DNA of 64,000 nt from Thermoplasmatota archaeon (GTDB taxonomy: Archaea > Thermoplasmatota > Thermoplasmata > UBA10834), in the NCBI GenBank assembly GCA_040751795.1, contig JBFMHR010000005.1, positions 74,282-138,281 on the forward strand, given 5' to 3'. Below are positions 24,428 to 55,520 of the stretch, one piece after another. The position numbers and the translations under genes are program-made. Positions within the stretch are counted from its first letter, which is position 1. Each line of letters begins with the position of its first letter. Below the pieces are notes generated by a model. The model had not been told where the DNA came from. It was given only the letters and a program-made list of their open reading frames with translations, and made no database searches.

Positions 24428-25363
24428 TTACTGACCCGGCTCCCAAGTGAATCTGGAAGTGATGGTATCGCACCTTGAACAAGGAGAGAGGTTTCTTCTG
24501 CCATTCGTATTCAATTCGTTTCTGATCCTCGCTAGCTGTTTCCCTCTCCAGATATCGATCATTGTCTCTTTGTTCATATCGCCAACGATGTTCTCATAAT
24601 AGACATCATTGCAGCAAATATGGACGAGTCCAGAGGAATTGACATTGAATTGTCTGAATGGCCAACTGCACCATCTCTTCTGCGTTATCCAATCATCAAC
24701 TCTCCATGTACTCTCTCCCAACCTGTTGGGTGCATTTCCTCCGCGCCTCGTCAGTCTTGCATTCTTGTCCCTGAGCTGAAAGACAATCGTCAAATCCTTT
24801 TCAATCTGAGTTCCGCGGATATCTGAGAGCAATTGCTGCATTCTCGCGCTCATCTTCATGTCATCGGTATAGTCATTTATTCGCAGCAATGCCTTGCCAT
24901 TCAGTCCATTGGAGTAAAGCTCAGTGAGCTTGTCAAAGTCGAGTAGTATGCCATTGGTCCATACCCCAATGCCTGCATGTGGTAAGTTCATCCTGATCTC
25001 GGATATGAACGACGCCATCCTTGAATCTAGCAGGGGTTCATTGTTATGGAACGGGTATATCCATCCCGTGTATCTGAGTTGCTTAAGTTGCCTCACTATC
25101 TCTGAGAATATCTCCTCCTTTAGATGGATGGGTTTCCGCTTATCAACATGCATATTTGCCGGGCAAAATGCGCAATCATTGTTGCATCGATTGAAGGTCT
25201 CAATCTCCACATGGTTGAACAGAGGTGGATCATAGGGATTCCAGTTGCATGAATTCCTCTTAATCTCGCCGTGAACTGTGACTGCCAGTTCGGATATGAG
25301 GGGGATGTGATATCTCTTGAAGTAATGGAATGGTTGTTGCGTCTCGATTACCGTCACCGGCAA
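24428..25363 (-). CDS. Radical SAM enzyme with SPASM/twitch-like C-terminal Cys-rich domain
   Basis: 311 aa. CNNDCAFCP is a CxxxCxxC motif. GEPLL-like and TNG motifs are present. C-terminal CSWPF...HICCND...CSRCD cysteines. It lies in a short low-GC patch flanked by GC-rich DNA. Confidence 0.7.
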   Translation of the reverse strand: MPVTVIETQQPFHYFKRYHIPLISELAVTVHGEIKRNSCNWNPYDPPLFNHVEIETFNRCNNDCAFCPANMHVDKRKPIHLKEEIFSEIVRQLKQLRYTGWIYPFHNNEPLLDSRMASFISEIRMNLPHAGIGVWTNGILLDFDKLTELYSNGLNGKALLRINDYTDDMKMSARMQQLLSDIRGTQIEKDLTIVFQLRDKNARLTRRGGNAPNRLGESTWRVDDWITQKRWCSWPFRQFNVNSSGLVHICCNDVYYENIVGDMNKETMIDIWRGKQLARIRNELNTNGRRNLSPCSRCDTITSRFTWEPGQ

Positions 25364-25509: not shown

Positions 25510-25676
25510 GGGAAGTGAGCCCGCGCCCCGGGTCTGGACGCCTCCGAGCGCCTCGACGGCCGCGCAGACGAACGCTCGCGGTCGCCTGTGACGGGCCTCT
25601 GTCAGGGCCGCCTCGGCGCCTTTCAGCCTCCTTCGCTGGGATGCGGGCTCACCTCATTTTGTTTCGGTCACTTCCC
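25510..25676. repeat. Imperfect long-range inverted repeat (GGGAAGTGAGCCCGC ... GCGGGCTCAC[18 nt]TCACTTCCC) enclosing about 118 bp of GC-rich non-coding DNA
   Basis: Read directly from the sequence. The right arm is the reverse complement of the left arm, interrupted by an 18-nt AT-rich insert, and it overlaps the stop codon of the downstream acidic-protein gene. Confidence 0.45.
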
Positions 25677-26339
25677 GGACTGGACCTTGCCGTCCTGGCC
25701 GCCGTTGCACTCGCCGTTCTGCTCGCCTCCGGACTCGCCCTCCTCGGCAGTGTCGTCATCCTCGGGCTCGTCCTCGTAGTCGCAGTCAGCCGGCTCGTCC
25801 TCGGCGTCCTCGGTGGATGACTGGTGGTCCTCGGAGTGCATCTCGCAGTTCTGCTGCTCAGAGCCTGCGTTGCGCTCGCGGTGCCTCCAGCAGTTCCCGT
25901 TCTGTTCCCCGTTGCCCTCCTGCTCGTCGTCGTCCTCGTCCTGGTCGTCGTCGCCCTCATCGTCATCGGCGTCGTCGTCATCGTCGGACTGGTCGTCGTC
26001 ATCGTCGTCGGGGACCTCGTCGTCCTGCTCATCGTCATCCGGCAGCTCGTCGTCGTCCGATCCCTCGTCATCGTCTCCGTCAGGAACCTCGTCGTCGGAT
26101 GTGTCGTCCTGGTCTCCGTCCGTCGTGTCGTCAGAATCGGACGTGTCGTCGGAGGAGCCGTCAGTATCGTCAGAAGAGGAATCGTCGTCGGCGGTGTCGT
26201 CCTGGCTGTCGTCGGGCAGTTGGTCATCCGCAGGGGGCGGGTCGATGTTGATGTCGGGCTTGTCATCGCCACCTATCAACGATACGACTAGCACCGCGGT
26301 AATGATGAGCGCGGCGCTGGCCACCACTGTGGTGCGCAA
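25668..26339 (-). CDS. Signal-anchored poly-acidic (Asp/Glu about 50%) low-complexity protein with four Cys in the C-terminal part
   Basis: The minus frame gives a TTG start, an N-terminal hydrophobic anchor (AALIITAVLVVSLIGG), then DDxxDD-rich sequence. GGAGGTGA lies about 25 nt upstream and AAGAGG immediately upstream. A TATA-like ATATAAATA lies about 80 nt upstream. A plus-strand Ser-rich frame is also open, so strand and coding status are uncertain. Confidence 0.35.
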   Translation of the reverse strand: MRTTVVASAALIITAVLVVSLIGGDDKPDINIDPPPADDQLPDDSQDDTADDDSSSDDTDGSSDDTSDSDDTTDGDQDDTSDDEVPDGDDDEGSDDDELPDDDEQDDEVPDDDDDDQSDDDDDADDDEGDDDQDEDDDEQEGNGEQNGNCWRHRERNAGSEQQNCEMHSEDHQSSTEDAEDEPADCDYEDEPEDDDTAEEGESGGEQNGECNGGQDGKVQSGK

Positions 26340-28112: not shown

Positions 28113-29330
28113 TCACGCCTCGGCGGTCTCGTTCGCCTCGGGCTGCGGCTCGGGGGGCACCTCGACGATGGGCTCCACGACCTTCGCGGAGCGCTCGAGG
28201 AGGGCCAACTCCTTGGTGCTCAGGACCCGCGGGTCTATTACGACGACAATGGCGCAGTCGTGGGCGAGGACGAAGTCGTGAAGGTGGTTCACGAACCTCA
28301 GGACCGTCTCGAAGTCGTTCTGGGTGATGAGGTACTCCGCCCCCTCGATCAGCACGACGGTCTTGGCGCGGTCCTCGACGAACCTGGAGATCTTGAGGCT
28401 CACGAGGCTGAGCTCGGTGGGATCCACGTGGCTCGCGCCGGCCCTGCGGGTGAGCCAGAGGATGCTCTTCGCCTCGAACTCGTGCACCTCCTTGAGCCTG
28501 TTGGGGTGCTCCCTGGATATGAGCATCCCCTCGGCGCCGTGGGCCACGGCCTCGTTGTACATGGAGAACGCGACGTTCGGCCTCTTCTCCTTGACCAGGT
28601 AGATGAACCCCCTCTCGATGGGGAACTGCTCGCCCGGGAGGGGCCTCAGGACGGGGAACCCCTCGCCGTTCACGGCCGTCACCGCGGCTGCCCTTGCGGA
28701 GGCCCCGCCAGCGCCGGAGCCGCGCCTGTAGTAGAGCACCGCGCCTATGGCGCCGAGCGAGATGACCAGGGCCGCGGCGGCGATGTACGGGATGTAGTCG
28801 GTGGAGACGGTAGCGCCATTGGTGGGCAGCTCCTGCTCCTCCGCCTCGACCACGAAGTCCCTGTAGGTTATGCCCGTGCCCCAGACATAGGAGATGTTCC
28901 CCCAGGCCGTGTGCACCAGGTAGTCGAGCCTGAAGTAGTAGCTGTATGTCTGGGCGCAGGCGTCGTCCGGCACGGTGAGGTTGACGGCGTAGGTCTCGAT
29001 GCCGACCCCGTCGGGCGCGAGCCAGGAGGAGTTGCCCGAGACGTTGTTCCAGGCCCACTCGTTCGGGGCCATCCAGTAGAAGTGGACGCTGACGTTGGTC
29101 ACCTTGACCATGTACGCCAACGAGTCGTAGACGTAGTCCCCTGAGGCCATCTGGTTGACCACGGTGACCTCGATCGAGAAGTCGTCCCCGGCGCAGTAGG
29201 AGCTCTGGGCGGGGACGAAGCCGAAGTCGACGGATATGGCGTCCTCGAGGGCGGACGAGCCGGAGGACGCGGCTAGGAGCGCTAGCGGTATGAGCATCAC
29301 TGCGAGAACGGGCCTCGGTGCCGCGGCCAT
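28113..29330 (-). CDS. Membrane protein with extracellular sequon-rich domain and cytoplasmic DUF835 domain
   Basis: Signal peptide, an extracytoplasmic domain (several N-x-S/T), and one TM helix (YIPYIAAAALVISLGAIGAVLYY). The C-terminal region (GAEGMLISREHP...VVLIEGAEYLITQNDFETVLRFVNHLHDFVLAHDCAIVVVIDP) matches the DUF835 pattern seen in archaeal sensor-like proteins. Confidence 0.55.
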   Translation of the reverse strand: MAAAPRPVLAVMLIPLALLAASSGSSALEDAISVDFGFVPAQSSYCAGDDFSIEVTVVNQMASGDYVYDSLAYMVKVTNVSVHFYWMAPNEWAWNNVSGNSSWLAPDGVGIETYAVNLTVPDDACAQTYSYYFRLDYLVHTAWGNISYVWGTGITYRDFVVEAEEQELPTNGATVSTDYIPYIAAAALVISLGAIGAVLYYRRGSGAGGASARAAAVTAVNGEGFPVLRPLPGEQFPIERGFIYLVKEKRPNVAFSMYNEAVAHGAEGMLISREHPNRLKEVHEFEAKSILWLTRRAGASHVDPTELSLVSLKISRFVEDRAKTVVLIEGAEYLITQNDFETVLRFVNHLHDFVLAHDCAIVVVIDPRVLSTKELALLERSAKVVEPIVEVPPEPQPEANETAEA

Positions 29331-29404
29331 CTCCCTTCCCCGACGCGGTCAGTGCGCGTCGTCACCCCAATCACCGAATCGCTACATAAACAGTTGGCCA
29401 ACGG

Positions 29405-29881
29405 TCAGACCAGTACGCGCTTCTCCTCCTTGGTGATGTTGAGGACGACCTGCGTGTAGGTGCGGTCGACGTTCGGGTGGTCCAGGACCTTCTTGACGAA
29501 GGTGTTCAGCTCCGCCCTGGACTTGAACCTCGCCTCGACTATGGCGTCCCATTCTCCCGTGGAATCATAGACGGCGAACACCCCGGCCTCCTTGGCGAGG
29601 TCCTTCTCCGTGTCGATGATCTTCCCGTGCATGACCTTGATGCCTATGACGGCCATGATGTCGTACCCGAGCTTGGTCGCGTCGACGACGGGGATGTAGC
29701 CCTGGATGATGCCGGTGCGCTCGAGGATCTTGACCCTGTTGGAGACGGTCGTGAGGGAGACCTGGAGCTCCTTGGCGATGTCCCTGAAGCTCTTGCGGGC
29801 GTTCTCGTTCAGGCTCCTGATGATGTCCATGTCGAGCTCGTCCAGGTCCACGACGTCCGCGACCCTCTTTTCAGCCGCCAT
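29405..29881 (-). CDS. Lrp/AsnC-family transcriptional regulator
   Basis: A 158-aa frame from MAAEKRV with an HTH region (SFRDIAKELQVSLTTVSNRVKILE) and a C-terminal RAM domain. A TATA-like AGATATTTATC lies about 28 nt upstream in an AT-rich intergenic region. Confidence 0.8.
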   Translation of the reverse strand: MAAEKRVADVVDLDELDMDIIRSLNENARKSFRDIAKELQVSLTTVSNRVKILERTGIIQGYIPVVDATKLGYDIMAVIGIKVMHGKIIDTEKDLAKEAGVFAVYDSTGEWDAIVEARFKSRAELNTFVKKVLDHPNVDRTYTQVVLNITKEEKRVLV

Positions 29882-30202
29882 CGGGACGCCCAAGCACTTC
29901 TGCTGATAAATATCTTGCACCTGTACGCCCATTGTGTGGTCGAAATAGCGGGATTGCGCTAATATTATGGTCATTCGACCTGTTTTTCCCGAACAATGTT
30001 GATATATGGCCGAATACATACAGTACGTGCCGGAGGTCGTCAAGTATGCCAGGGGATGCTATTTGTTCTGAGGCGCGCCTGAAGTACTGGGAGGAGGAGT
30101 GGCTGTCCCAGCTGATCTCGGAGGCGCTCCGGCTGAAGAAGCACGCCCCGGAGGAGGACAAGTCCGCGTCCTCCGTGAAGGGCCAGGACCTCTCGTGAAC
30201 GG

Positions 30203-31483
30203 TCAGGCCTTCGTCGGTTTCTCGTCCCTGGGCTCCGCTATCTTCCTGAAGAATAGGTAGAAGATCAGCGTGCCGGCGATGTACATGATCGATGTGTAGT
30301 AGAAAGGCTCCGCGCTCGAGTAGTCGTTCGCCCAGATGTAGCCGCTGACGGCGTACGCGGCGGAGAACGCCAGGGTCCATGCGAGCTGGCTGATGGCCCA
30401 GAACGAGGCCCTCACCTCCTCGCTCACGATGTTCATGAGGTACGCGTTCAGGACCGGGATGGGCACGAGCATGAGCAGGCTCCTGAGGGTGAAGAGCACC
30501 GCCACGAGCAGGAGCGAGAACGCGGAGTAGGGTATGGCGAAGAGGAACCCGACGGAGGCGAGCTGGCACACGGTTATGAGCAGGACGGACCCCCGTGCCT
30601 CCGCGTACTTGGGGACGACGAACCAGCCCACGGCGACGGCTATGTTGGAGGCGGTGACCATCGCCGTCAGCTGGAGGGAGTCGGCGCCCATGCCCTCCTG
30701 GAAGACCAGGGGGAGCCAGGGGATGACGAGGCCTGCGCCGACGCCTATGAGGGCGTTCTGGAAGGAGTAGACGAAGAGCCTCTTGAGGAAGACCCGGTCG
30801 AAGCTCACCCTCAACTTCTCGCCCTTGGCCTTGACCTCCGACACCCTGAGGATGTAGAACACGGGCACGACGCTCGCCAGGGCGGCGGCGAGGACCACGA
30901 GCCAGTAGCCGTCGGTGAGCTCGAAGCCGTAGTTGGTCAGGAGGAACCCGGGGAAGAAGATGCCCGTGGCGCTGGCGATGGTGATGGCTATCTGGTTGGA
31001 GAAGCCCTGGAGTCCGTAGAAGAACTTGAGCCTGGTCGGGGCGGCCTTGCTCGCCATGAGGGCGACGATCGATGGCTGGACCAGGGACGAGCCGAGGCTG
31101 ATGAGCCCCTCGGCGACGATGAACACGGCGAGGTTCGGCTCGTACAGGAAGAGCGCCGCGCCGGCCGTGTTGAAGACGAGCCCCATCAGGAGGAGCTTCT
31201 TGCGGCCCAGGATGTCGGCGAGGAAGCCGCTGAAGAGGAGGCTGACGACGCCGACAGCGGAGCCGATGCCGCCGATGAGGCCGATCTCCTCCGAGGTGAA
31301 GCCGAGGGCGTCCCAGTAGAGGGAGATGACGTACCAGGTGACGCCGCCCAGGATTCCCATGAAGAAGGAGGCGTTGATGATCCGGTGCTCGTCCTTGCTG
31401 CTGGATGAGTAATACCGGAAGGTCTCCCCGGCGCTTGCCTGCCCCGCCTGCGCAAGCCCCTTGACGGTCCCTCGCATCCCCAT
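30203..31483 (-). CDS. MFS-family transporter
   Basis: 426 aa with 12 TM helices and an ADILGRKK-type MFS loop motif. Confidence 0.7.
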   Translation of the reverse strand: MGMRGTVKGLAQAGQASAGETFRYYSSSSKDEHRIINASFFMGILGGVTWYVISLYWDALGFTSEEIGLIGGIGSAVGVVSLLFSGFLADILGRKKLLLMGLVFNTAGAALFLYEPNLAVFIVAEGLISLGSSLVQPSIVALMASKAAPTRLKFFYGLQGFSNQIAITIASATGIFFPGFLLTNYGFELTDGYWLVVLAAALASVVPVFYILRVSEVKAKGEKLRVSFDRVFLKRLFVYSFQNALIGVGAGLVIPWLPLVFQEGMGADSLQLTAMVTASNIAVAVGWFVVPKYAEARGSVLLITVCQLASVGFLFAIPYSAFSLLLVAVLFTLRSLLMLVPIPVLNAYLMNIVSEEVRASFWAISQLAWTLAFSAAYAVSGYIWANDYSSAEPFYYTSIMYIAGTLIFYLFFRKIAEPRDEKPTKA

Positions 31484-31561
31484 TATATTGCGACCTTGGT
31501 CGAGAGAATGCGCTCGTTCGTATTAATGTGACGATGGCACCGTCTGTATGTGGTTAATCTT

Positions 31562-32623
31562 ATGACTGAGCACTGTCCTCTGCATGGTGTGGCCAATGTC
31601 TGGGGACGCCTGACCGAGGTCGTCGATCGATTCTTCCCACTTGATAGCCCACGAAGGAAGGTAGTCCAGCTAGTATCCGTAGTCCTGTTAGTCGAGGGCA
31701 TTTCGGTTCTTCTCCTCTTTTCCTACGTCGGCCCTCTGCTCGGGCTCATCTCCATTCTACTCGGCGCGGGTCTCATGGCTCTGTTCTTCAGAGCTGAGGA
31801 GGAGCAGCGAGCGCAATCATATGAGCCGCTTGGCATGCGAATCGTATCGACACTCACTAGGAGTATTGGCGGCGAGTATGCGTTGATGGTTCTCGGCGCG
31901 GTTCTGATCATTCTTGTGGTCCTATACAACGCATTTGTCTCGGAGACCCCGGACTACGGAGACGTCGACGTCATAATAATGGTGTTCAGCGGACTGTTGA
32001 TAGTCTTCCCATTCGTGCCAGATCAATGGCGGATTGAGGCGACGTTCGCAGTAGTGTTCATCGGATTCGTCACTCTGCTGTTGGCTGTTCCTCAAGCAAT
32101 CACATCTCTGGGTGGCGAGGGAGACGCTAGCTCCATAGGCAATTGGTATGTCCACTACATGCTCGCGGCCCCATTCGCATCAATCTTGGATCTACTAGGG
32201 ATTCCATCGAGTTCAATCGGGAATCTGGTGACTCTGCAATTCCAGGACGGATCCATTCACACACTGGAGATATCTGCATATTGTGCTGGCCTCTATTCAT
32301 TCTCGATTTTCTTGTCCGCGTTCTTCTCGTACGTATTAGTTCTTGAGAAGCTCAGGGCCAGTGTCTTGGCGGCAGTTCTTGGACTGGGCGTCTTGGTTGC
32401 CTATCTGGGGAACCTCTTCAGGATGGTAGTCGTGGGCGTCGTGGGATACTACTGGGGAATAGAAGCGCTGCATTGGGCTCACCAGAATGCTGGATGGATC
32501 ATCTTCATATCATGGTCGGCGTTGTTCTGGTGGATTATCCTCAGCCGCTTCAGCAGCGATGTGCCCGCGAGAGAAGGTCAGCTGAGTCCAGAGGCGACCC
32601 GAGAGCATGAGGAGACTGACTGA
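31562..32623 (+). CDS. Exosortase/archaeosortase-family polytopic membrane protein (archaeosortase candidate)
   Basis: About 8 TM helices, a conserved-looking Cys in ISAYCAGLYSFS, and an N..R pair in GNLFRMV consistent with the Cys/Arg/Asn catalytic signature of this family. ATG at 31562 with a TATA-like GTATTAATG about 30 nt upstream. First gene after the GC drop. Confidence 0.5.
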   Translation: MTEHCPLHGVANVWGRLTEVVDRFFPLDSPRRKVVQLVSVVLLVEGISVLLLFSYVGPLLGLISILLGAGLMALFFRAEEEQRAQSYEPLGMRIVSTLTRSIGGEYALMVLGAVLIILVVLYNAFVSETPDYGDVDVIIMVFSGLLIVFPFVPDQWRIEATFAVVFIGFVTLLLAVPQAITSLGGEGDASSIGNWYVHYMLAAPFASILDLLGIPSSSIGNLVTLQFQDGSIHTLEISAYCAGLYSFSIFLSAFFSYVLVLEKLRASVLAAVLGLGVLVAYLGNLFRMVVVGVVGYYWGIEALHWAHQNAGWIIFISWSALFWWIILSRFSSDVPAREGQLSPEATREHEETD

Positions 32624-32769
32624 CGCGCCCCCTCCAACAGACTCGTCGTCTTGACGAATGCTGGCGTTGATATCTTAGTCGATGTGGCTGATGCACACCG
32701 CTTCATGCTTCACGTTAGTCTATGAGTACGAAGCGTGGCCCCATCAATCGTCTTCGAAGCCGCACTTTC

Positions 32770-33768
32770 CTATAGCGGCTTGGACTCGGAGGGCGGGAAG
32801 AATCTGCGCTTGAGAATCCACGAGCCTACGCGGAATGGATGGGCCTTGATCAGGCTTCTCGTGTTGCAGACCATCCAGCAATCCATGTTGCAGTTCGTCA
32901 CGGCCTTTCTGAGATCGTATTCGTCGATGTTCGCCGCAAATTCGTCCCAACTGCGGTGTTGGGTGATGTTGCCGAGCTTCTTGTTCATCACATTGCACGG
33001 ATAGACATCCCCATTTGGCGCTATGAAGACGTACTCTTTTCCGGCCTCACATGAAGATGTATATCGGTGTCTCTCGCCGACGTCGATTATCCCGTTTGTG
33101 TGATATGCTCTCAGCCAGTCCTTCGCGTGTTTCGAATGGAGCTGGGCTTCAACGACTGAGGCTATGCTATTCGAGTCACTGATCCCACTGCTCGTTTCAG
33201 TAGGGTTGTCATCTTTGCAGAAGTAAACATCAGAGTTGTGGACATGGACGCACGTGAATTCGACGTCAAGGCCGCGAGCCAGGGCAAAGACGTCTCGTAC
33301 TTCCTTTGAATTCTCACGCATGATGGTCATTGCGATTCTTAGGTCGCGTATCCCGAGATTCTTGAGGGCAGTCACTGTGGTCAGGGCCTTATCATAGGCT
33401 CCTTCAATTCCTCTGATGGTATCGTGTGTCTTTCCTATGCCATCGATGGACACACCAACGCCCACGCGAGGGTGGAAGTGCATTATCTCCTTGATCGTCG
33501 ACGTGATTCGCGCAGTCAGAAACCCGTTCGTCGAGAACACTATCCGAGAAGATGGGACAATGCTGTGAATCTCTCTTATGACTTCTACTAAGTCATGGCG
33601 AAGAAATGGCTCTCCGCCGGTTATGTTGATTGTTTTGAGGGATGGCGGTATCTTGTGATAATCCGCAGGTGTCATCTCTGCGCCAGGATCCAGCTTCCAG
33701 ATGTTACACATGCTGCACTTGGAATTGCACCTGTAAGTGACAGCGATAAAAGCCTCTCGGATCCTCAC
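32770..33768 (-). CDS. Radical SAM enzyme with SPASM-like C-terminal domain
   Basis: YRCNSKCSMCN is a CxxxCxxC motif near the N-terminus. GGEPFL and STNG motifs are present. C-terminal cysteines (CEAG...YPCNVM...CNMDCWMVC). Confidence 0.7.
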   Translation of the reverse strand: MRIREAFIAVTYRCNSKCSMCNIWKLDPGAEMTPADYHKIPPSLKTINITGGEPFLRHDLVEVIREIHSIVPSSRIVFSTNGFLTARITSTIKEIMHFHPRVGVGVSIDGIGKTHDTIRGIEGAYDKALTTVTALKNLGIRDLRIAMTIMRENSKEVRDVFALARGLDVEFTCVHVHNSDVYFCKDDNPTETSSGISDSNSIASVVEAQLHSKHAKDWLRAYHTNGIIDVGERHRYTSSCEAGKEYVFIAPNGDVYPCNVMNKKLGNITQHRSWDEFAANIDEYDLRKAVTNCNMDCWMVCNTRSLIKAHPFRVGSWILKRRFFPPSESKPL

Positions 33769-33891
33769 ATCAGTTTATGAGCGAACAAGGTCTATATATC
33801 TATTGTTGGCCTATAGCCAGGTCTGCGAGATCCGGATTTCTGATGGATCTTGCTGGTCTGCGCGGCTCGTGAACCGAGAGGTCTGTGGCGA

Positions 33892-35112
33892 ATGCGGAAC
33901 ATGAGAGTTCTGATGCTTGCACCGGAGTTCCTTCCCGTCAGAGGAGGTGTCGGCAACTACATTGCAGAGATATCAAAGCGGGTCCCGCACGATGTGGAAA
34001 TGTACGTTGTGACTCCCAGGCAGGGCACAAATGAGTCGGAACATGCACAGATCAACGGCAATGAGGATTTCGTGTCTTCAGACAATGTTCACGTGGTGTA
34101 TCTTGGAGAAGCACAGGACTACTTCTTCGGCAATTTCCCATTTCAGGTCAACTGCGGATTTGAATTGAGAAGAATGATTCGCGATTTGAGGATAGATATC
34201 GTCCATTCTCACAGCGCGATGCCCGACTACTTCGTTTCCCCGGACTCCACCGGGGTTCCGTTCTTGACCACCATTCACACTACCCTTGAGGGACACAAGA
34301 ACGCCCTGAAGGCGTCTGGAAGCAGATTCACGGAGCTTTCGATGCACGAGAGGTTCGCTCTTCTCCTCGCACCCGCTCTGAAACGCTTCGAGGACGCATA
34401 TTACAGTAAGAATCGACACTATTCAACAGTCTCAGAATGGGGCAGGGAGAGAATCGTTGAAGAGAAGAAGATACCCCGCGACAGAGTCCGAGTGATTCGA
34501 CCAGGGGTTGACACATCCATATTCAGCCCTTCAAAGAGAGAAGTGCCATTAGAGGCGATTGACGACATAGAGTCTCCAAGAGTCCTGTATCTCTCTAGGA
34601 TGGCAACCAGGAAGGGCATATACCTCCTTCTCAAGGCTATTCCTAGGATCCTCAAGAGACTGGACGCTCACTTCCTCATCGCTGGATCTGGGACACTCCA
34701 GGCAGAGTTGGTCCCGCGGAGCAACACAACGTTTCTAGGACAAGTTCCAATGTCACATCCCCCACTTCTCTATGCCAAATCCGATGTCTTCGTGTTGCCA
34801 TCGCTCTATGAGAATTTGCCGGTCTGTCTATTGGAATCGATGGCGTCAGGTTGCGCTGTTGTATGCTCGGACGTAGGCGGTGTGAGGGAGGTGGTCGATC
34901 ATGAGAGGACCGGATTGGTCATTAGGCCGAATGACATCACATCCATTGAGACTGCCATCATTCGTATGATTGAGGACGACAATCTCAGAAGAGAGATGAC
35001 AAGGAATGCGATGCAATCAATCACTAGGGAGTTCAAGTGGGAGTCGACAGCATCACAGACAATGGCTCACTATCAAGACATCCTTGATGGAGTGGAAAGG
35101 ACCAGTGAGTGA
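33892..35112 (+). CDS. Glycosyltransferase family 4 (GT-B, retaining)
   Basis: N-terminal MRVLMLAPEFLPVRGGVGNY. C-terminal E-x7-E region (ENLPVCLLESMASGCAVV). A TATA-like box lies in the divergent intergenic region. Confidence 0.75.
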   Translation: MRNMRVLMLAPEFLPVRGGVGNYIAEISKRVPHDVEMYVVTPRQGTNESEHAQINGNEDFVSSDNVHVVYLGEAQDYFFGNFPFQVNCGFELRRMIRDLRIDIVHSHSAMPDYFVSPDSTGVPFLTTIHTTLEGHKNALKASGSRFTELSMHERFALLLAPALKRFEDAYYSKNRHYSTVSEWGRERIVEEKKIPRDRVRVIRPGVDTSIFSPSKREVPLEAIDDIESPRVLYLSRMATRKGIYLLLKAIPRILKRLDAHFLIAGSGTLQAELVPRSNTTFLGQVPMSHPPLLYAKSDVFVLPSLYENLPVCLLESMASGCAVVCSDVGGVREVVDHERTGLVIRPNDITSIETAIIRMIEDDNLRREMTRNAMQSITREFKWESTASQTMAHYQDILDGVERTSE

Positions 35113-35139
35113 ACGGAGGTCGATGGTATCAGGTTCCTG

Positions 35140-36333
35140 ATGGTGAGCACGTATTTCCCGCCCTATCATGCGGGCGGGGATGCAATGATGGTGAAATACC
35201 TCTCTGACGAACTCATGCGTAGAGGACACGAAGTCGCTGTCTTCTCAAACCCCTCCATCTATCGTCTGCTGAAGTCCGCGGAACCGAAGAAGGATGATAG
35301 AACGGACGCGCCGTCGATTCATGCTTGCGAATACTCACCTTTGTCGGGCCGGCTCGAACTATTCGCCGACTATTTCCTGGGATTGTCTGACAGAGCATCC
35401 AAGCACCTGCGTACCCTGGTCAGGGACTATCGGCCGGATGTCGTGCACTGGCACAATACCAAGGGATTCATGAGCACACCGGTTCGTGTAGATGGTCCGA
35501 TATCGTTGTATACCGCTCACGATTACTATGCATTCTGCCCTAGGACGAATCTAATCACGCCTAACAGCATCTCGTGCCTAAGTCCAGCTTACTGTCAGCT
35601 ATGTCTGTTAAGGTGGCACAAGTTGCCGCAGCCATGGAGATGCGGAGGTCGAAGGGTCCTTAGATTACCCTCCGATACAAGAGTCATAGCTCCATCTCAA
35701 TACATGGCAACGAGACTGGAGGCGGAAGGCATCAAGAGCCCCAGAGTAATCAGGAACTTCGTTCTGGACCGGGGCATCGTTTCTGGACCAACACATAGGG
35801 ATTCTATGACCTATTTGGGGGTTCTTGAACCCCATAAGGGTTTGGGGACCTTGATGGACGCATTCATGAAGAGTGCATCGAGCCATGATTTCAACCTGAA
35901 CATCATCGGGCAGGGTTCAATGAAAGGGTCTTTGGAGAGCAGGGCTTCGAAGAGCGGCTTGTCAGACCGAATTCGCATCCACGGGTTCATCCCCTACAGC
36001 CAACTCGATGAGATTCTCAGAGGGACAGCAGCTCTCCTGGTGCCATCCGAATGGCCTGAGAACTCTCCCCTCGTGGTACTGGAGGCCTTGTCCAAGGGAA
36101 TCCCCGTGATAGGTTCGCGTGTGGGTGGGCTGCCAGAGATCATCAATGAGGCGTCTGGTTCTCTTCTGTTTGAACCTGGAGATGTTACGCAACTCTCAGA
36201 GGCAATGCAAACAGTCTGGAGTGACGGTGACTTCTCCAGCACTCGCCAGCGGAAGGCCAGAGTCTCATACGAGTCCATGTTCACCCCTGATGCGCATATT
36301 AATGCGTATCTCAGATTGATACATAGCATCTGA
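35140..36333 (+). CDS. Glycosyltransferase family 4
   Basis: FPPYHAGGDAMMVKYL N-terminus and EWPENSPLVVLEALSKGIPVIGSRVGGLPE C-terminal GT4 signature. 27-nt spacer after the previous GT4 with a GGAGGT element. Confidence 0.75.
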   Translation: MVSTYFPPYHAGGDAMMVKYLSDELMRRGHEVAVFSNPSIYRLLKSAEPKKDDRTDAPSIHACEYSPLSGRLELFADYFLGLSDRASKHLRTLVRDYRPDVVHWHNTKGFMSTPVRVDGPISLYTAHDYYAFCPRTNLITPNSISCLSPAYCQLCLLRWHKLPQPWRCGGRRVLRLPSDTRVIAPSQYMATRLEAEGIKSPRVIRNFVLDRGIVSGPTHRDSMTYLGVLEPHKGLGTLMDAFMKSASSHDFNLNIIGQGSMKGSLESRASKSGLSDRIRIHGFIPYSQLDEILRGTAALLVPSEWPENSPLVVLEALSKGIPVIGSRVGGLPEIINEASGSLLFEPGDVTQLSEAMQTVWSDGDFSSTRQRKARVSYESMFTPDAHINAYLRLIHSI

Positions 36334-36948: not shown

Positions 36949-38073
36949 TCAGCCTCCGCTCGCACCTGTCAAAGGTGGACTGAGAGCATCGAGCAATGCC
37001 TCTACCACTGTCGACACCTCATCACGGGTCATTTGAGGAAACATTGGCAGAGATAGCACAGACTCAGATACAGCCTCCGTTATTGGCAGTTTGAAATCAT
37101 GGCTACTTTTCTTGTACGACTCCTGCAGATGGACGGGTACGGGATAATGTATGCTTGTCCCTATTCCTCTCGAATTCAGTTCCTTCTGAAGGCGCTGTCT
37201 GTTCTCCGTTCTGATGACGAATTGATGATAGACATGTGTGGCATGTGGTGCTTCGATGGGCAGGACTATGCTCGCATTCCCTAATCCGTTCCGGTACATT
37301 CGGGCTATGTCTCTGCGTTTCGCATTCCAGTCATCAAGATGTCCCAACTTCACTCTCAACACTGCCGCTTGAATCTCGTCGAGTCTGCTATTAATGCCTA
37401 CTGTTTCGTAGTAATATTTCTGGGATTGTCCATAGTTGCTCATCTTGCTCACTTTCTCTGCAATTTCCTCGTTGCTTGTCACCACGATTCCTGCATCTCC
37501 GTAAGCGCCCATGTTTTTCGTCGGGTAAAAGCTGAAACATGCAGCGTCTGCTAGTGACCCGACCCTCCTGCCTTGGTACGTGGCGCCATGTGCCTGGCAC
37601 GCGTCTTCGATGACAAAGATGTCCTTGTCTTCAGCAATCTCCATGATTTCATCCATTCTTGATGGATGTCCGTAGATGTGGACCGGGAGAATCGCCTTCG
37701 TCCTGTCCCCGATTTTTTCTCGTATTTTTGAGGCATCGATGCAGTATGTATGGGGGTCAATATCAACTAGAATTGGTCTTGCTCCATTCCTCGTTATGGC
37801 ATCGACAGTTGAAATGAACGTGTGAGCAGTTGTGATCACTTCATCACCCGGGCCAATTCCAAGCGCCCTAATTGTCGTCAGAAGGGCATCTGAGCCTGAA
37901 TTGACTCCAATGCCAAACCTCGTTCCCACATATGCGGAAAACTCCGATTCAAAGGCTCTACATTCCGCGCCATTGACAAACTGGCCAACGGTGAGCACCC
38001 TCTCAATTGAGTCGAGAACAGCCTCTCCAATCTCTTCAAGTTCTCTCGAAAGGTCGATCGATTTCACAGACAT
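36949..38073 (-). CDS. DegT/DnrJ/EryC1/StrS-family PLP-dependent sugar aminotransferase (FdtB/QdtB/WbpE-like)
   Basis: 374 aa with the characteristic family layout. Candidate PLP-Lys at SFYPTKNMGAYGDAG. Confidence 0.85.
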   Translation of the reverse strand: MSVKSIDLSRELEEIGEAVLDSIERVLTVGQFVNGAECRAFESEFSAYVGTRFGIGVNSGSDALLTTIRALGIGPGDEVITTAHTFISTVDAITRNGARPILVDIDPHTYCIDASKIREKIGDRTKAILPVHIYGHPSRMDEIMEIAEDKDIFVIEDACQAHGATYQGRRVGSLADAACFSFYPTKNMGAYGDAGIVVTSNEEIAEKVSKMSNYGQSQKYYYETVGINSRLDEIQAAVLRVKLGHLDDWNAKRRDIARMYRNGLGNASIVLPIEAPHATHVYHQFVIRTENRQRLQKELNSRGIGTSIHYPVPVHLQESYKKSSHDFKLPITEAVSESVLSLPMFPQMTRDEVSTVVEALLDALSPPLTGASGG

Positions 38074-38147
38074 GGTGGTTTCGCCGCATCATTCAAGTAG
38101 TCATATTCATGAAGAAAGGACATGCATGGGTCTGCAAACACACACGT

Positions 38148-39095
38148 TTACTCCCAATTGACCTCATAAGTATCATACACCGTCGCTCTCGCGCCAAAGG
38201 TGCTCTTGTAGTCTGATAGACTGGAATTTAGATATTGGCCTGCATTTTCTGTAGAAATCCCGAAATCAAAGTACCTCTTGTCGATATAGTATTCGTTTAT
38301 CAAATAGTCTAGCACGCAGTCCACAACGTGCGATTTCCTTCCCGCTTCGGTTGAGGCGATGTACTGAGTGTGCGCGACGTTCCTGCTTTCATACATGATC
38401 ACACCTCCTTCCATGCGCCCGTCAATCACACCGGCGAACAGTCTTATGTTCTCCGGGAATCTCTGAGCTAGAAGAATCATCTCTTCCTTTGTGTGCGTAG
38501 GTCTGACGCCGTGTCTAGATTCCAAACACTTCTTCTCGATTTCCATATAGTTTCCGAAATCGGAGCTTTCCTCGACCTCTGTGCCACGAGACTGAGCCTT
38601 CCTAACACACCACCGACGTTCCTTGGCGAAAGGTGTCCTTTCTGGCATGAAAATAGTGGAGGAGACATCTCGCCTAACTAGCTTCGCATCCGTGAGAAAG
38701 AGGGCGTACAAATCCTCTTCTGCTGGAATGGAATGATAGATGTGTGGTATAGCTTTGTACACGAGCTTCTTGATGCCCATCTCCTTCAGGTGTTTCCCTA
38801 AATCATGAAAGAGATCTACCATGTCCGTGGCCCTCAGTCTGCTATCCGTTATAATTCCCCCGAACGTTAATCCTGCATGACTTGTCATCACGTCTCCTTC
38901 AATAGTGGCTGGCATGACTGCCGTTAAGTCCATGACATCGAAGAAGAATAGCAGAGAACTGTCCCTGAATCTATCCGAATGGTAGTCCATGTACTTCCTA
39001 TCGAAGAGGAATAGTCCATTTCTCGAAGCCTTAACGAATTGATTCCAGCTATCTTCAAGTTCGGGACTATATGCGGTGATTCTGAACATATCCAA
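38148..39095 (-). CDS. FemAB/BioF2-like GNAT-fold acyl(aminoacyl)transferase candidate
   Basis: 315 aa. Two-lobed layout and local similarity pattern recall the Acetyltransf_6/FemAB clan. Weak call from sequence alone. Confidence 0.35.
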   Translation of the reverse strand: MDMFRITAYSPELEDSWNQFVKASRNGLFLFDRKYMDYHSDRFRDSSLLFFFDVMDLTAVMPATIEGDVMTSHAGLTFGGIITDSRLRATDMVDLFHDLGKHLKEMGIKKLVYKAIPHIYHSIPAEEDLYALFLTDAKLVRRDVSSTIFMPERTPFAKERRWCVRKAQSRGTEVEESSDFGNYMEIEKKCLESRHGVRPTHTKEEMILLAQRFPENIRLFAGVIDGRMEGGVIMYESRNVAHTQYIASTEAGRKSHVVDCVLDYLINEYYIDKRYFDFGISTENAGQYLNSSLSDYKSTFGARATVYDTYEVNWE

Positions 39096-39106
39096 CCCTT
39101 AGTGCC

Positions 39107-40018
39107 TCAGATTTCCAACTCTGCGTAACCGAATCCGGTTCTGCCCATATCGTTCCCGTTGTAGAACATAATCGTCCTTTCCCGGACTCGTATTGTGGCA
39201 GGGTAGCACAAATGTTTCGAATCCCACCCCTCCTTTGACAGTGAGATTCCTGCTTCAGAATCCTTCCTTATCCATGAGATTCCATCTTTGGATTCAGCAT
39301 ATCCTGGGATGTAGTCCCCGGTGAGAGTCCCCTTCGTATAGAACATGCAATAGGTATCTCCATCTTTGACTACTCTTGGTCTTCCGATTCGGTACTCGTT
39401 TTCAGTATTATCGATGCAAACCGTCCCTCGGTCTGGGAAATGGATTCCGTCCCTCGACTCGTAGAGCCTGATGTTGTACCTCGGATACGGTTTACCCCCG
39501 ATAGTCTCCCAGCCACTTCCGACGCCGCACCAGGCTCTCCAGATGCCGTTCTCTCTGAGAACGGAGTGTATCGCCCTTATGTACAATCCGTCGTCCGATC
39601 GGTCAAGGATGGGAGTGTTGCTGCATCGCTGGAATCTCTCCCCGCCATCCACACTGACTGCTAGGCCACTGAATGCCAAGAACTTCACTTTCTCCACCAA
39701 TTGGAAGCCAACATAATACATCAGCAACTTCCTGCCGAGTTGCGCAATATCGCCAAGAATCACTCCATTGTCATCGAAACAACCAGGCAGGCCGACGTCG
39801 AGGACTGGGCTATCTGACACCGCTACAATCCTTGATGGTTTGTCGGCGTCAACATCCACATAGCCGATTCTACTTGCTCCCGTATTGTCGCGCATTCCTG
39901 CATAGACGCGAATCTTGTCATCTTCCAGTTGAATCGGAGTCGGCGTTAAAGCGGAGTGTTGTGACCAGTTGGATCGCCCATTTGGGCAATAGACTAACCC
40001 CATCTTTTTCCACTTCAA
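39107..40018 (-). CDS. Five-bladed beta-propeller glycosidase/phosphorylase-like protein (GH43/GH130-superfamily-like)
   Basis: Repeated S/T-x-DG-x-x-(W/F) blade motifs (SVDGGERF, SRDGIHF, SKDGISW) and a C-terminal FYNGND. Family assignment tentative. Confidence 0.35.
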   Translation of the reverse strand: MKWKKMGLVYCPNGRSNWSQHSALTPTPIQLEDDKIRVYAGMRDNTGASRIGYVDVDADKPSRIVAVSDSPVLDVGLPGCFDDNGVILGDIAQLGRKLLMYYVGFQLVEKVKFLAFSGLAVSVDGGERFQRCSNTPILDRSDDGLYIRAIHSVLRENGIWRAWCGVGSGWETIGGKPYPRYNIRLYESRDGIHFPDRGTVCIDNTENEYRIGRPRVVKDGDTYCMFYTKGTLTGDYIPGYAESKDGISWIRKDSEAGISLSKEGWDSKHLCYPATIRVRERTIMFYNGNDMGRTGFGYAELEI

Positions 40019-40021
40019 GAG

Positions 40022-40705
40022 TTATTCCTCACTTACTCCAAAGCTCTCGTAACTGCTCTTGTCGAGAGGGCGCGCAGGATTTCCAACGCACACCTTTCCA
40101 GGCTCGGTATCTCTGATTACTACAGCACCCGAGCCAACAATACAGTCTTTCGCGATTTTGATGCGATCATTATACGTGCTATTCACACCGAGGAAGCAGT
40201 TTTCGCCGATGTCACAGTAACCTGATATGACGCAGTGTGAGGACACGTAACAGTTATCGCGGATGTAAGTTCGATGGCCCACGTGGTTGCCACTCCAGAG
40301 TACCACATTGTTGCCAATCTTGACCTTGTGTTGAAGGACGTTGTTTTCGAATATGAATGAATTCTCGCCAATCTCTACATTGTGCCAAACGAAAGCCTTT
40401 GAACTGACGTAGGATACGAGTCGAAACCCCTTTTTCTTCACTTCGTTATACAGCCTCGTCCTCACTCGGTTGAGCTGGGTATAGGTCACCGCGACATAGA
40501 CGCTGTATTTGGATGGGCTAAAGATCTTATCCAGTTCCTCGAATGGTACCACCGGCAGGCCGAGCAGATCCTTCTCTTTCAGGAAATCTCTCTCGACTGA
40601 GAACGCCACAACTTCGTATTGGGAGTCATGCGTGAAGTACTCGTATGCAATTTGAGCGAACTCACCCGCTCCGACGATGATGATCTGGCCTTTCTTGTCC
40701 CTCAT
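40022..40705 (-). CDS. NeuD/PglD/WbpD-like sugar N-acetyltransferase (hexapeptide LbH with N-terminal Rossmann-like domain)
   Basis: IIIVGAGEFAQ N-terminal motif followed by isoleucine-rich hexapeptide repeats (IGENSFI..., IGNNVVL..., IGENCFLG...). Confidence 0.7.
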   Translation of the reverse strand: MRDKKGQIIIVGAGEFAQIAYEYFTHDSQYEVVAFSVERDFLKEKDLLGLPVVPFEELDKIFSPSKYSVYVAVTYTQLNRVRTRLYNEVKKKGFRLVSYVSSKAFVWHNVEIGENSFIFENNVLQHKVKIGNNVVLWSGNHVGHRTYIRDNCYVSSHCVISGYCDIGENCFLGVNSTYNDRIKIAKDCIVGSGAVVIRDTEPGKVCVGNPARPLDKSSYESFGVSEE

Positions 40706-41160
40706 ATCCGCTTATCCTCCCTCGGGGTTCCGCTCTTGCCCCCGCTCGCTTTCCTTCGACCTACCATCTTGAGGAATACTTGTTTGTCCCTAATGTAGTC
40801 CTCGACCTTGTAGAAATCTGATGCAAGAACCAAGCAGACGGCTCCTGATGAGAAGTTGTCAAGTTTCCTCCATGTCATTGGTGGAATGTACAAACCGTAG
40901 TGAGCTCTGTTGAGGTGAAACCGCTTGCGGTTCTTCCCATCTTCAAGTACGACATCGAAGCTGCCACTCATGGCAATCATCAGCTGCTCGAGTCTCCTAT
41001 GCGCATGTTCTCCTCTTTCCTCTCCTCCTGGAACATCATAGAGATAGTATATTCGTTTGATGTCGAATGGGATATGACGCGTTGATTCTACAAATGTGAG
41101 ATTGCCCTTTTCGTTTGCGATTTTTGGGAGGCTCACAATCCTGCAATCGGCTAGCGACAT
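40702..41160 (-). CDS. WxcM/FdtA-like cupin sugar 3,4-ketoisomerase
   Basis: MSLADCRIVSLPKIANEKGNLTFVE...IPFDIKRIYYLYDVP matches the FdtA/QdtA N-terminal signature. 4-nt overlap with the downstream acetyltransferase. Confidence 0.65.
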   Translation of the reverse strand: MSLADCRIVSLPKIANEKGNLTFVESTRHIPFDIKRIYYLYDVPGGEERGEHAHRRLEQLMIAMSGSFDVVLEDGKNRKRFHLNRAHYGLYIPPMTWRKLDNFSSGAVCLVLASDFYKVEDYIRDKQVFLKMVGRRKASGGKSGTPREDKRI

Positions 41161-41238
41161 AATCTCACCTTCTGCGCGCCAAATGCGGCTCAAACGACAT
41201 TTGCATATCACCATACACTACGTTTGCTGTTCCGCTAA

Positions 41239-42723
41239 CTATTGTCGAGGTATTCTGGGCGATATGGATCGTATGAAGCACCACAGCCTTGCTCTTTCCG
41301 TCTCATCTAGAATGGCTATCACGAATATAAAGGATGCAGCGACCGATATCACACACTTCGGCCAGAATACAATCTCATCATTCCAGCAGAATACCGAGGC
41401 AATTGCGATGATACTCAGTCCTCCGAGCCAAGAACTCTTCAGGCGAGAATCAGAACGGAAGCCATGTCTTCTAATCAGATAAATGAATGCGAACGCGACG
41501 TACACGGAATTGACTACAACGTACGAAATGCCCACGCCCTCAAGGGAACTCAAGACGTCCATTGCTCCCAAGGAAATGGTCAAGAACCCCATCGACGAAC
41601 AGCACTCGAGGGCGAGGAAAGTTCGCACGTCTGCATACGCAAACATAGGCATTGCAAGAACCCATCCCGTCACCCTCATGTAGTCTCCCACGAGCATCCA
41701 CCTAGTCATGCTCGTCGCCTCCAGGAACTCCCCTGAAAACAGGAGTGAGATCACGAATTGCTTTGCGGTAACGATGAATACGGCGATGGGCACAATAATC
41801 ATGATAGAGATTCTGAGGTAATCTCTGATTAGCGAGAGTTTCTCGCCTTGAGCATTAGTCTTGCTGAGAGTCGGAAGGTAGTAAGTGCCGCACGATACAA
41901 GAATAGCACCAACATATGTCATACTTAGAGACCAAGCAGCATTGAAAACACCTGCCTTGTCCATCCCTCCATTTTGGATGATTGACAGCCGGACTATGAG
42001 CAGGACGAAGGATGAGAGGAGTGCCGTTGCCAGCGTTGTTCCAGCGAGCGAGACGAAGTGCCGGACCGACTCTTTGTCGAAAGACTCGCGGAGCCTGAGC
42101 ACTAGCGGCTTGATCCATCCATTTCGCAAGGCCACGTAAAGATTCAAGACCAGACTCATCGAGGAAGTGGCAGTCATCAGCCAGACAAGCGCAAGAAGGT
42201 AGCCACTATCTGCAGCTAAGCACACCGGGTAGGCAATCGCTGCGTTAGTGCCTGCGACTACAATTTGGATTACGGCCATACGACCTATAGCACGGTATCC
42301 ATTGAGGATACCTGCAAAGTACGTGGCAAATGCGTTCAGGGCCACCGGCAGTGAAAGGAAACGAACCAACCACACATTCACTGAATCGCCAGATCCCAGC
42401 ACTGCAGGTGCAATCACTGGCGCCGTAATGACAAGCGCGAGAGCAGTCACGAACCCGCCAATGAGGAATATCAGAAAGATGGCACGGACATATCTCTCTC
42501 TCGCTGCCTTTTCCCTGCGGGCGATTCCCTGCACTAGCGCTGGTCCGCCCGCCAGAGTTGCCAGCAGTCCTGATGTTTGGCTCATTTGAATTAGCATTGA
42601 GTATAGGCCCACGCCTGCTGGGCCAAGAATCACCGCCATGATCTTTGATGAGGCCACGCCAAGAAGCGAGGAGACTGCGAATCCCCCGCTCGTTTTGGAC
42701 ATTGCCTTGAGGATGTCACGCAT
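41239..42723 (-). CDS. Wzx-like polysaccharide/oligosaccharide flippase (MOP superfamily)
   Basis: About 495 aa with 12-14 TM helices. N-terminal MRDILKAMSKTSGGFAVSSLLGVASSKIMAVILGPAGVGLY is typical of polysaccharide biosynthesis export proteins. Confidence 0.75.
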   Translation of the reverse strand: MRDILKAMSKTSGGFAVSSLLGVASSKIMAVILGPAGVGLYSMLIQMSQTSGLLATLAGGPALVQGIARREKAARERYVRAIFLIFLIGGFVTALALVITAPVIAPAVLGSGDSVNVWLVRFLSLPVALNAFATYFAGILNGYRAIGRMAVIQIVVAGTNAAIAYPVCLAADSGYLLALVWLMTATSSMSLVLNLYVALRNGWIKPLVLRLRESFDKESVRHFVSLAGTTLATALLSSFVLLIVRLSIIQNGGMDKAGVFNAAWSLSMTYVGAILVSCGTYYLPTLSKTNAQGEKLSLIRDYLRISIMIIVPIAVFIVTAKQFVISLLFSGEFLEATSMTRWMLVGDYMRVTGWVLAMPMFAYADVRTFLALECCSSMGFLTISLGAMDVLSSLEGVGISYVVVNSVYVAFAFIYLIRRHGFRSDSRLKSSWLGGLSIIAIASVFCWNDEIVFWPKCVISVAASFIFVIAILDETERARLWCFIRSISPRIPRQ

Positions 42724-44100: not shown

Positions 44101-44101
44101 G

Positions 44102-55503: not shown

Positions 55504-55520
55504 GCAGATTGCAGGAATTC

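Follow-up and report, generated by a model that had tools for sequence, protein, structure and literature searches.

An ArtC-like archaeosortase of Thermoplasmata, its place at the start of a hypervariable glycan locus and its likely PEF-type substrates

What does an archaeosortase act on when no recognizable substrate is encoded around it? This question is raised by a 64,000-nucleotide stretch of DNA (positions 74,282 to 138,281 of contig JBFMHR010000005.1, assembly GCA_040751795.1; hereafter the window) from a Thermoplasmatota metagenome-assembled genome (MAG), in which a gene for an exosortase/archaeosortase-family membrane protein lies at the entry of a low-GC island and converges with a radical SAM gene. 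A first-pass annotation, made from the letters of the window alone, had implied that these two genes belong together and had named three nearby proteins as candidate substrates. Our analysis points to a different explanation, which we consider fairly probable: the gene encodes an ArtC-like archaeosortase that processes PEF-type tails and stands at the head of a glycan locus together with partners of the glycosyltransferase C (GT-C) type, while the radical SAM gene is cargo of the glycan pathway.

The archaeosortase and its conserved setting

The archaeosortase open reading frame (ORF) encodes 357 amino acids (aa) counted from the first GTG, and its first ATG is at 31562; the NCBI start at 31589 (GTG) gives a protein of 344 aa, MEW5748714.1, which matches exactly and is annotated as "exosortase/archaeosortase family protein" of a Candidatus Thermoplasmatota MAG, encoded on a contig of 276 kb. 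We scored 233 homologues, one of which (P0001) was 100% identical. The protein exceeded the cutoffs of both family models, reaching 46.2 bits against PF09721 (Exosortase_EpsH, cutoff 25.7) and 52.5 bits against TIGR04178 (cutoff 23). Across an alignment of 20 homologues (A1), the residues C245 in ISAYCAG, N288 and R291 in GNLFR, and H311 in WAHxN were invariant, and a crude hydropathy scan gave about eight hydrophobic segments, with an unoriented topology. The first-pass annotation had placed the gene in the exosortase/archaeosortase family because of the AYCAG cysteine and the Asn and Arg of GNLFR. Since the family models are passed and these residues are retained on alignment, this assignment stands.

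The same annotation had pointed to the profiles of archaeosortase subfamilies and their cognate signals. ArtC (TIGR03762), which has been described with PEF-CTERM (TIGR03024) in Methanosarcinales and ANME-2, was the best subfamily for the window protein, yet the score of 80.1 bits lies under the cutoff of 100, and no candidate substrate matched a CTERM signal model. The ten other clade members tested also had ArtC as their best subfamily, with 61.6-75.2 bits, so that the clade as a whole scores 61-80 bits; several of them carry the JGI label "archaeosortase C". About 210 residues, including the Cys/Arg/His core, were matched by the ArtC model. In contrast, the first ~55-65 positions of the model were unmatched in the ten members, which have instead a clade-specific N-terminal region of ~100 aa with extra transmembrane (TM) segments. 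The second-best subfamily was XrtG for several members, the ArtA model gave no match to the window archaeosortase among those listed at E<=0.1, and a sequence-profile search of the PDB returned no relative of the clade. As all tested members score below the ArtC cutoff and share an N terminus of their own, they are better regarded as a coherent, uncurated sister subfamily than as marginal ArtC proteins; judged from these profiles and alignments, the archaeosortase represents a subfamily without a curated name that is specific to Thermoplasmata. All 19 loci found among species-representative genomes derive from Thermoplasmata-related MAGs, and the clade occurs widely among the uncultured Thermoplasmata of soils and sediments. 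Within a literature coverage that was incomplete, neither an archaeosortase from Thermoplasmata nor a pairing of an archaeosortase with a GT-C protein was seen to be described.

The window is made up of a backbone of ~67% GC at 1-31.5 kb, with a GC content at third codon positions (GC3) of ~0.94, and a part of ~50% GC that extends from there to the end. This step from ~0.67 to ~0.50 at ~31.5 kb confirms the island-entry position claimed for the two genes. An island-like GC3 is already found in the archaeosortase gene itself (0.61, versus 0.95 in the adjoining MFS gene). For comparison, we examined the synteny of 19 loci from species-representative Thermoplasmata MAGs as well as three further contexts (individual loci are denoted by L numbers below). 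The upstream gene order (S8 protease, kelch, DUF835, AsnC regulator, MFS, archaeosortase) was kept across the 19 loci, and in 17 of them an MFS homologue precedes the archaeosortase gene by ~1.0-1.5 kb. The downstream gene content was unlike in every genome, yet it always consisted of glycan-assembly genes. In nearly every locus, it was with the archaeosortase gene that the GC3 fell (in L004, for example, from 0.94 to 0.62). Because this drop is seen throughout the lineage, the archaeosortase is the fixed first gene of an atypical, hypervariable glycan locus rather than a recent import, and a recent horizontal gain of the gene by this genome alone is ruled out.

Upstream of the MFS and archaeosortase genes, both in the window (28113..30043, minus strand) and in most related loci, lies a conserved pair of genes, one for a DUF835 protein anchored in the membrane and one for a regulator of the AsnC/Lrp type. 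The AsnC gene is the most conserved of the neighbourhood (66-81% identity between loci), and its product could control the glycan locus. At the borders of the island, no tRNA, flanking repeat or detectable transposase was found; the ORF 43092..43463, which looked like a transposase by eye, had no Pfam match.

GT-C neighbours and the radical SAM enzyme

The usual downstream neighbour of the archaeosortase gene is a gene for a polytopic membrane protein of 560-620 aa, which is homologous to the 586-aa GT-C-like protein of the window and follows immediately on the same strand (+1.1-1.2 kb) in 16 of the 18 assessable loci. Homologues of the distant 596-aa paralogue lie 2.7-3.0 kb downstream of the archaeosortase gene in six loci and 4.3-6.1 kb downstream in three more. 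When the alignments of the two families (A2 and A3) were compared by hhalign, they were related with a probability of 96.5% over the N-terminal ~200 residues. The 586-aa and 596-aa proteins themselves had no Pfam or NCBIfam match, a few homologues of the former matched DUF6541 or PMT_2, and the profiles of both families found no sequence relative in the PDB.

We built an AlphaFold2 model of the 586-aa protein from an alignment of 27 sequences (A5), which had a pLDDT of 78 and a pTM of 0.72. In a Foldseek search of the PDB with this model, structures of PglB, STT3 and AglB took the top 17 places (E ~1e-7, TM-scores 0.47-0.57), followed by ArnT, ALG12 and AftD; all 26 matches down to E = 0.1 were GT-C enzymes, and the top 24 had a probability of 1.00. 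Like the oligosaccharyltransferases PglB, STT3 and AglB, the window family has a predicted GT-C fold, a soluble domain at the C terminus and, within the first external loop, an acidic residue that is conserved (D49, E44). It differs from them in its low identity (~12%), in having no STT3 Pfam match and in missing the WWDXG motif, there being no WWD in the 586-aa sequence or in the invariant columns of A2 and A5. The fold match thus identifies the protein as a GT-C glycosyltransferase, and in view of the missing motif we do not term it an oligosaccharyltransferase.

The public annotation of this gene, MEW5748731.1, gives a protein of 386 aa and drops 200 N-terminal residues. The 21 closest homologues match the 586-aa ORF over its whole length (93-99% query coverage), and the dropped residues include many conserved positions, most of them invariant in A2 (14 sequences) and several still so in A5, as well as the likely catalytic Asp of the first loop. 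Since these conserved residues fall outside MEW5748731.1, the deposited start is probably wrong. This is a conserved GT-C partner family that was previously unannotated, and curated models are missing for it, for the archaeosortase subfamily and for the PEF[G/S] signal variant described below.

The convergent radical SAM ORF encodes 332 aa and is separated from the archaeosortase ORF by a gap of 146 bp. Its description as a radical SAM protein with a SPASM-like C terminus proved correct, with scores above the cutoffs for PF04055 (58.6 bits, cutoff 29.5) and PF13186 (SPASM, 28.7 bits, cutoff 21.5), although of the 67 positions of the latter model only 1-38, its first half, were matched. The cysteines C14, C18 and C21 of the CX3CX2C motif were conserved in 52-53 of 53 family members, and the C-terminal C240, C258, C293, C297 and C301 in 42-53 of them. 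No NCBIfam equivalog model came up to its cutoff, the best maturase matches reaching 50-63 bits against cutoffs of 265-850. Homologues with 44-64% identity were present in six of the 19 loci, 4.9-10.6 kb away from the archaeosortase gene and in none of the 19 directly beside it, which speaks against the implied pairing of the two genes. All six copies adjoined a GT4 homologue, and the module of a radical SAM gene followed by two GT4 genes also occurred in L011 and L014, in mirrored orientation.

An exhaustive search for the radical SAM family gave ~209 cluster representatives at E<=1e-30, and we checked ten members carrying an extra region. Six of these were fused to glycosyltransferases (GT4 in two, GT2 in three, GT28 in one), and the others to an LPG_synthase TM domain (two), a glycosyl-hydrolase-like GHL15 domain (one) or a methyltransferase (one). 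The linkage to GT4 genes and the fusions to glycosyltransferases together suggest that the enzyme belongs to glycan biosynthesis. From these sequence comparisons we conclude that it is cargo of the glycan pathway, not a maturase of archaeosortase substrates, and that it probably acts with the adjacent GT4 proteins in sugar or glycan modification. We also conclude that its convergence with the archaeosortase gene stems from a rearrangement specific to this genome. A carbohydrate-acting radical SAM enzyme with a twitch/SPASM auxiliary-cluster domain is known in BtrN. The window protein resembles BtrN-type enzymes in combining a radical SAM core with a short Cys-rich C-terminal domain in a sugar-pathway setting; this is an analogy only, no significant specific similarity having emerged and no NCBIfam equivalog having been reached.

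A second radical SAM/SPASM gene (24428..25363, minus strand) was observed in a small low-GC patch (~23-26 kb, GC ~0.55) within the high-GC backbone. Its product matched SPASM over the full model (41.6 bits) and Radical_SAM with 33.8 bits. The gene has no homologue in the 19 related loci and fills the slot that is occupied in L004 and L022 by the PEF-tailed beta-helix gene described in the next section.

Candidate substrates and competing explanations

The first-pass annotation had stated that no canonical sorting substrate is present in the window, and our census agrees with it. Under a strict definition of a C-terminal TM helix plus basic residues, only polytopic membrane proteins of the window were retrieved, and the motif-TM-basic arrangement was absent from the window in the strict census, the relaxed census and a six-frame regular-expression search. 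The latter two, applied to the window and the 19 loci, gave a single true match, which lies in L004; PGF tails were found neither in the window nor in the loci.

The three proteins that had been put forward as candidates fared less well. No match near the cutoff was obtained when the tails of the PKD protein, the 799-aa acidic protein and the S8 protease were compared with CTERM sorting models; the best NCBIfam match of the PKD tail was LPXTG (14.0 bits, cutoff 15.9), which is meaningless in an archaeon. The PKD protein had been said to end at RSKRRQKER and to offer, in its PETGFE-TM-basic arrangement, the closest approach to a sorting signal. In fact, it runs 20 residues beyond this basic patch. 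Five orthologues (L008, L010, L018, L019, L021) have unrelated sequence in place of PETGFE, while the TM helix, the basic patch and the cytoplasmic helix KIEAALEIEKALE are conserved. A variable motif with a conserved tail is the opposite of what is expected for a sorting tail that is discarded, and the protein was rejected as a substrate on these grounds and for want of a CTERM match; its conserved C-terminal helix instead implies a cytoplasmic binding partner. The 799-aa protein, which also carries no motif, has a plain TM anchor followed by a Pro-rich tail and was rejected as a canonical substrate; the S8 protease has an internal TM segment that is not preceded by a motif and was rejected as well. 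The three proposed substrates are ordinary membrane proteins.

A non-canonical signal, as the first-pass annotation had suggested, is not needed either, because PEF-type tails do occur in the lineage and, in two genomes, lie less than 8 kb from the archaeosortase gene. L004, the closest relative, with an archaeosortase that is 71% identical, encodes 7.5 kb upstream of the archaeosortase gene a signal-anchored beta-helix protein that ends in PVP-IPEFG-AAPVVAMVLMAAIVLTV-RARRRPPVA. The same tail recurs in L022, in the corresponding place and again less than 8 kb from the archaeosortase gene. Among the 120 best homologues of the beta-helix protein, at least 75 end in ...YYPLTT...P-IPEF[G/S]-TM-R(x)RKK, about half of the tails having PEFS in place of PEFG. 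The lineage resembles the ArtC/PEF-CTERM system in that its surface proteins have C termini with PEF followed by a TM helix and a basic cluster, and differs from it in that the tails are at least as close to PEFG-CTERM (TIGR04296), with which they align over 26 of 30 positions. In L022, the PEF-tailed beta-helix gene (2335..3653) is split by a frameshift into pieces of 264 aa and 100 aa, which is either an assembly error or a pseudogene.

ArtC is the partner of PEF-CTERM according to PMC5244752 and PMC9723798, both citing Haft 2012. Taken with the PEF tails of the lineage, this pairing makes it the simplest reading that the subfamily handles the PEF[G/S] variant on proteins encoded elsewhere, and by this analogy the likely substrates are PEF-type proteins encoded outside the window. 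The archaeosortase would be an intact polytopic membrane Cys protease or transpeptidase, most likely removing a PEF-type tripartite signal (IPEF[G/S], TM helix, RxRKK) from secreted surface proteins that are dispersed over the genome, none of them in this window. To our knowledge, the only archaeosortase characterized experimentally is ArtA of Haloferax volcanii, which recognizes PGF-CTERM. Its conserved Cys, Arg and His residues are required (PMC6098224), and the surface proteins on which it acts are glycosylated, cleaved and anchored to lipid (PMC6098224, PMC7157517). The window archaeosortase belongs to the same superfamily and has the same conserved residues, which are proposed as a sortase-like catalytic set; it differs from ArtA in its subfamily, with no ArtA match or PGF tail seen as stated above. 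By analogy with ArtA and PGF-CTERM, cleavage may occur at the outer membrane face via Cys245, Arg291 and His311, after which the protein would be re-anchored. In the layout that we take as ancestral, one or two genes for GT-C membrane proteins resembling oligosaccharyltransferases would come directly after the archaeosortase gene, on its strand; a rearrangement in this genome would have moved these genes 17-24 kb away and placed an inverted module of the radical SAM gene and two GT4 genes beside the archaeosortase gene. The near-universal GT-C tandem at the head of a locus for a lipid-linked glycan suggests that the surface proteins which undergo C-terminal processing are also those that receive the glycan. 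The enzymatic activity, the identity of the substrates and the functional coupling to the GT-C proteins are steps that we infer.

Several observations weigh against this explanation. The archaeosortase scores below the ArtC cutoff, so that its pairing with PEF tails rests on analogy and on co-occurrence in two genomes, and the tails themselves stay below the cutoffs of both signal models (best 19.8-19.9 bits for PEFG-CTERM, cutoff 25; at most 18.9 bits for PEF-CTERM, cutoff 23). In this genome, of which the 64-kb window was the sole part surveyed, no PEF-type protein was found. Three further PEF-tailed beta-helix genes lie in unrelated housekeeping neighbourhoods with no archaeosortase gene near, although scattered genes of this kind are as expected for sortase-type substrates. 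As for the GT-C partners, the tandem is broken in the window, where the GT-C gene and the archaeosortase gene are 17 kb apart and the GT-C paralogue lies 24 kb off on the other strand; the structural match is moderate (TM-score ~0.5 at ~12% identity) and the WWDXG motif is missing. Moreover, adjacency of an archaeosortase gene and a GT-C gene is no proof of functional coupling.

Other explanations have to be weighed against the same evidence. If the archaeosortase and the convergent radical SAM/SPASM protein formed one system, a modified PKD, 799-aa or S8 protein would be sorted by a non-canonical signal. The two genes are indeed adjacent and convergent in the window, many SPASM enzymes are peptide maturases, and the weak NCBIfam similarities of the radical SAM protein point the same way; in addition, a tripartite signal need not be C-terminal for ArtA to process it, according to PMC6098224, citing Abdul Halim 2017. 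However, in none of the 19 related loci do the two genes adjoin each other as they do here, the radical SAM gene keeps company with GT4 genes and has family members fused to glycosyltransferases, and the maturase equivalogs of NCBIfam are not approached. Moreover, PETGFE is unconserved although the tail that would be discarded is conserved, and no candidate fits a sorting model. This explanation is largely refuted by synteny and we regard it as highly improbable. It is also conceivable, though unlikely, that the archaeosortase and the GT-C protein are one machine, in which the cleaved protein is joined to a lipid-linked or polymeric glycan, or is glycosylated before sorting. In favour of this are the same-strand tandem with short gaps in 16 of 18 loci, often followed by the second GT-C paralogue, a GT-C fold that is nearest to protein-glycosylating oligosaccharyltransferases, and the N-terminal region of ~100 aa that is peculiar to the clade and has no counterpart in the ArtC model. 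A parallel is offered by bacterial exosortases within exopolysaccharide loci (PMC6098224, citing Haft 2006 and 2012). Like exosortase A (EpsH/XrtA) with PEP-CTERM, the window gene lies at the edge of a polysaccharide locus with glycosyltransferases, several GT4 proteins of which have PEP-CTERM/XrtA-system families as their best NCBIfam match, far below the cutoff; here, however, the setting is archaeal, the signal motif is another one, and a GT-C protein resembling oligosaccharyltransferases takes the place of the bacterial exopolysaccharide cohort. What argues against one machine is that characterized ArtA anchors its substrates to lipid, not glycan (PMC6098224, PMC7157517), that the support is solely genomic, and that the tandem is broken in the window and also in L005 with neither gene showing decay. 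Having no WWDXG, the GT-C proteins might just as well polymerize or ligate a lipid-linked glycan that has nothing to do with the sorted proteins. No such tandem has been reported for ArtC in the literature we found.

Alternatively, the archaeosortase may have no dedicated substrates with C-terminal signals and may serve polysaccharide assembly or export in another way, a possibility that we rate as rather unlikely. Precedents exist in bacteria, where XrtF and XrtG mark conserved gene neighbourhoods and have no known sorting signal. The lack of a substrate in the window and in 17 of the 19 neighbourhoods, the tight linkage to glycan genes, a score under the cutoff of every subfamily that is paired with a substrate, and XrtG as the second-best subfamily for several clade members would all fit. 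On the other hand, the intact Cys/Arg/His signature favours protease or transpeptidase chemistry, ArtC, which pairs with a signal, is clearly the best subfamily, and PEF-type tails are abundant among the homologues, with both tail and enzyme present in two genomes. Processing of PEF-type tails by an ArtC-like archaeosortase therefore remains the explanation that we prefer.

Other features of the window and wider significance

The features of the window that bear on these questions are collected in Table 1. Besides those listed, the remaining glycan-assembly locus (36949..64000) encodes, as indicated by Pfam, DegT, FdtA and PglD-like amino-sugar genes, GT2 and GT4 transferases, a methyltransferase, and FrhB-like, pyruvyl-transferase, GHMP kinase and nucleotidyltransferase genes.

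Table 1 Coordinates of the features discussed (positions within the window)
Feature	Position	Strand	Basis
Archaeosortase-family membrane protein of an ArtC-like Thermoplasmata subfamily without a name	31550..32623	+	PF09721, TIGR04178, ~8 hydrophobic segments
Putative catalytic codons: Cys245 (32282-32284), Asn288/Arg291 (32411-32422), His311 (32480-32482)	32282..32482	+	Invariant columns in the 20-sequence alignment A1
Radical SAM enzyme with Cys-rich SPASM/twitch-type C-terminal domain	32770..33768	-	PF04055, PF13186
Two GT4-family glycosyltransferases (33850..35112 and 35140..36333)	33850..36333	+	Pfam Glycos_transf_1, Glyco_transf_4
Predicted GT-C-fold, oligosaccharyltransferase-like polytopic membrane protein, 586 aa	49338..51098	+	AlphaFold2 model, Foldseek, synteny
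Distant paralogue of the GT-C-like protein, 596 aa, ~11 TM segments	55521..57311	-	hhalign
MFS transporter, last gene of the high-GC backbone, divergent from the archaeosortase gene	30203..31483	-	PF07690 (91 bits), GC3 0.95
Remaining low-GC glycan-assembly locus	36949..64000	.	Pfam scans, GC profile
Wzx-like flippase	41239..42771		Pfam scans
PF00953 initiating transferase	54535..55503		Pfam scans
PKD-domain type-I membrane protein	20431..21204	+	Five orthologues aligned
Acidic 799-aa surface protein with signal peptide, Ig/MG2-like domains, C-terminal TM segment and 24-residue Pro-rich tail	14056..16455	-	Hydropathy scan; Pfam MG2, Big_13
S8 (mycosin-like) protease with internal TM segment followed by RSRSRR and C-terminal cupredoxin-like region	22131..24341	+	PF00082 (209 bits), TIGR03921 (174 bits)

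Within the glycan locus, the genes at 36949..41214 (minus strand) encode a DegT aminotransferase, a GNAT-like protein, a GH130-like protein, a PglD-like hexapeptide acetyltransferase and an FdtA 3,4-ketoisomerase. Genes of this kind typically serve to make a 3-acetamido-3,6-dideoxyhexose, and a sugar of this type is therefore a probable constituent of the glycan. A FrhB/FdhB-like flavoprotein with an N-terminal 2x[4Fe-4S] region adjoins a polysaccharide pyruvyl transferase (51249..52535 and 52874..54145, both on the minus strand), and the two look like a pair of a redox enzyme and a pyruvyl transferase within the locus. In the high-GC backbone, a hyper-acidic protein of 223 aa (25668..26339, minus strand) has 95 Asp/Glu and 7 Lys/Arg residues and an N-terminal hydrophobic segment; it matched no family, and its homologues were found in L003 and L005 only. 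The 953-aa ORF at 4930..7791 (minus strand) shows an odd GC content of 0.85/0.48/0.66 over the three codon positions, compared with ~0.6/0.45/0.94 in its neighbours, and is probably a wrong-frame call that masks the true gene or genes.

The mode of action of the archaeosortase subfamilies other than ArtA, and the frequent placement of exosortases in polysaccharide loci, remain unexplained. Sortase transfers cleaved proteins to lipid II, and it is imaginable, although quite improbable in our estimation, that the archaeosortase and the tandem GT-C unit couple the removal of a PEF signal to glycan transfer, for instance by anchoring the protein to a lipid-linked or polymeric glycan. If true, sortase-to-lipid-II anchoring would have an archaeal counterpart here, in a lineage with an uncharacterized cell envelope. 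The present locus provides a clean genomic case, with an archaeosortase gene that invariably opens a hypervariable glycan locus, a GT-C tandem and a PEF-type signal in the lineage. Overall, this combination yields a testable hypothesis that ties C-terminal sorting to glycosylation in uncultured Thermoplasmata.

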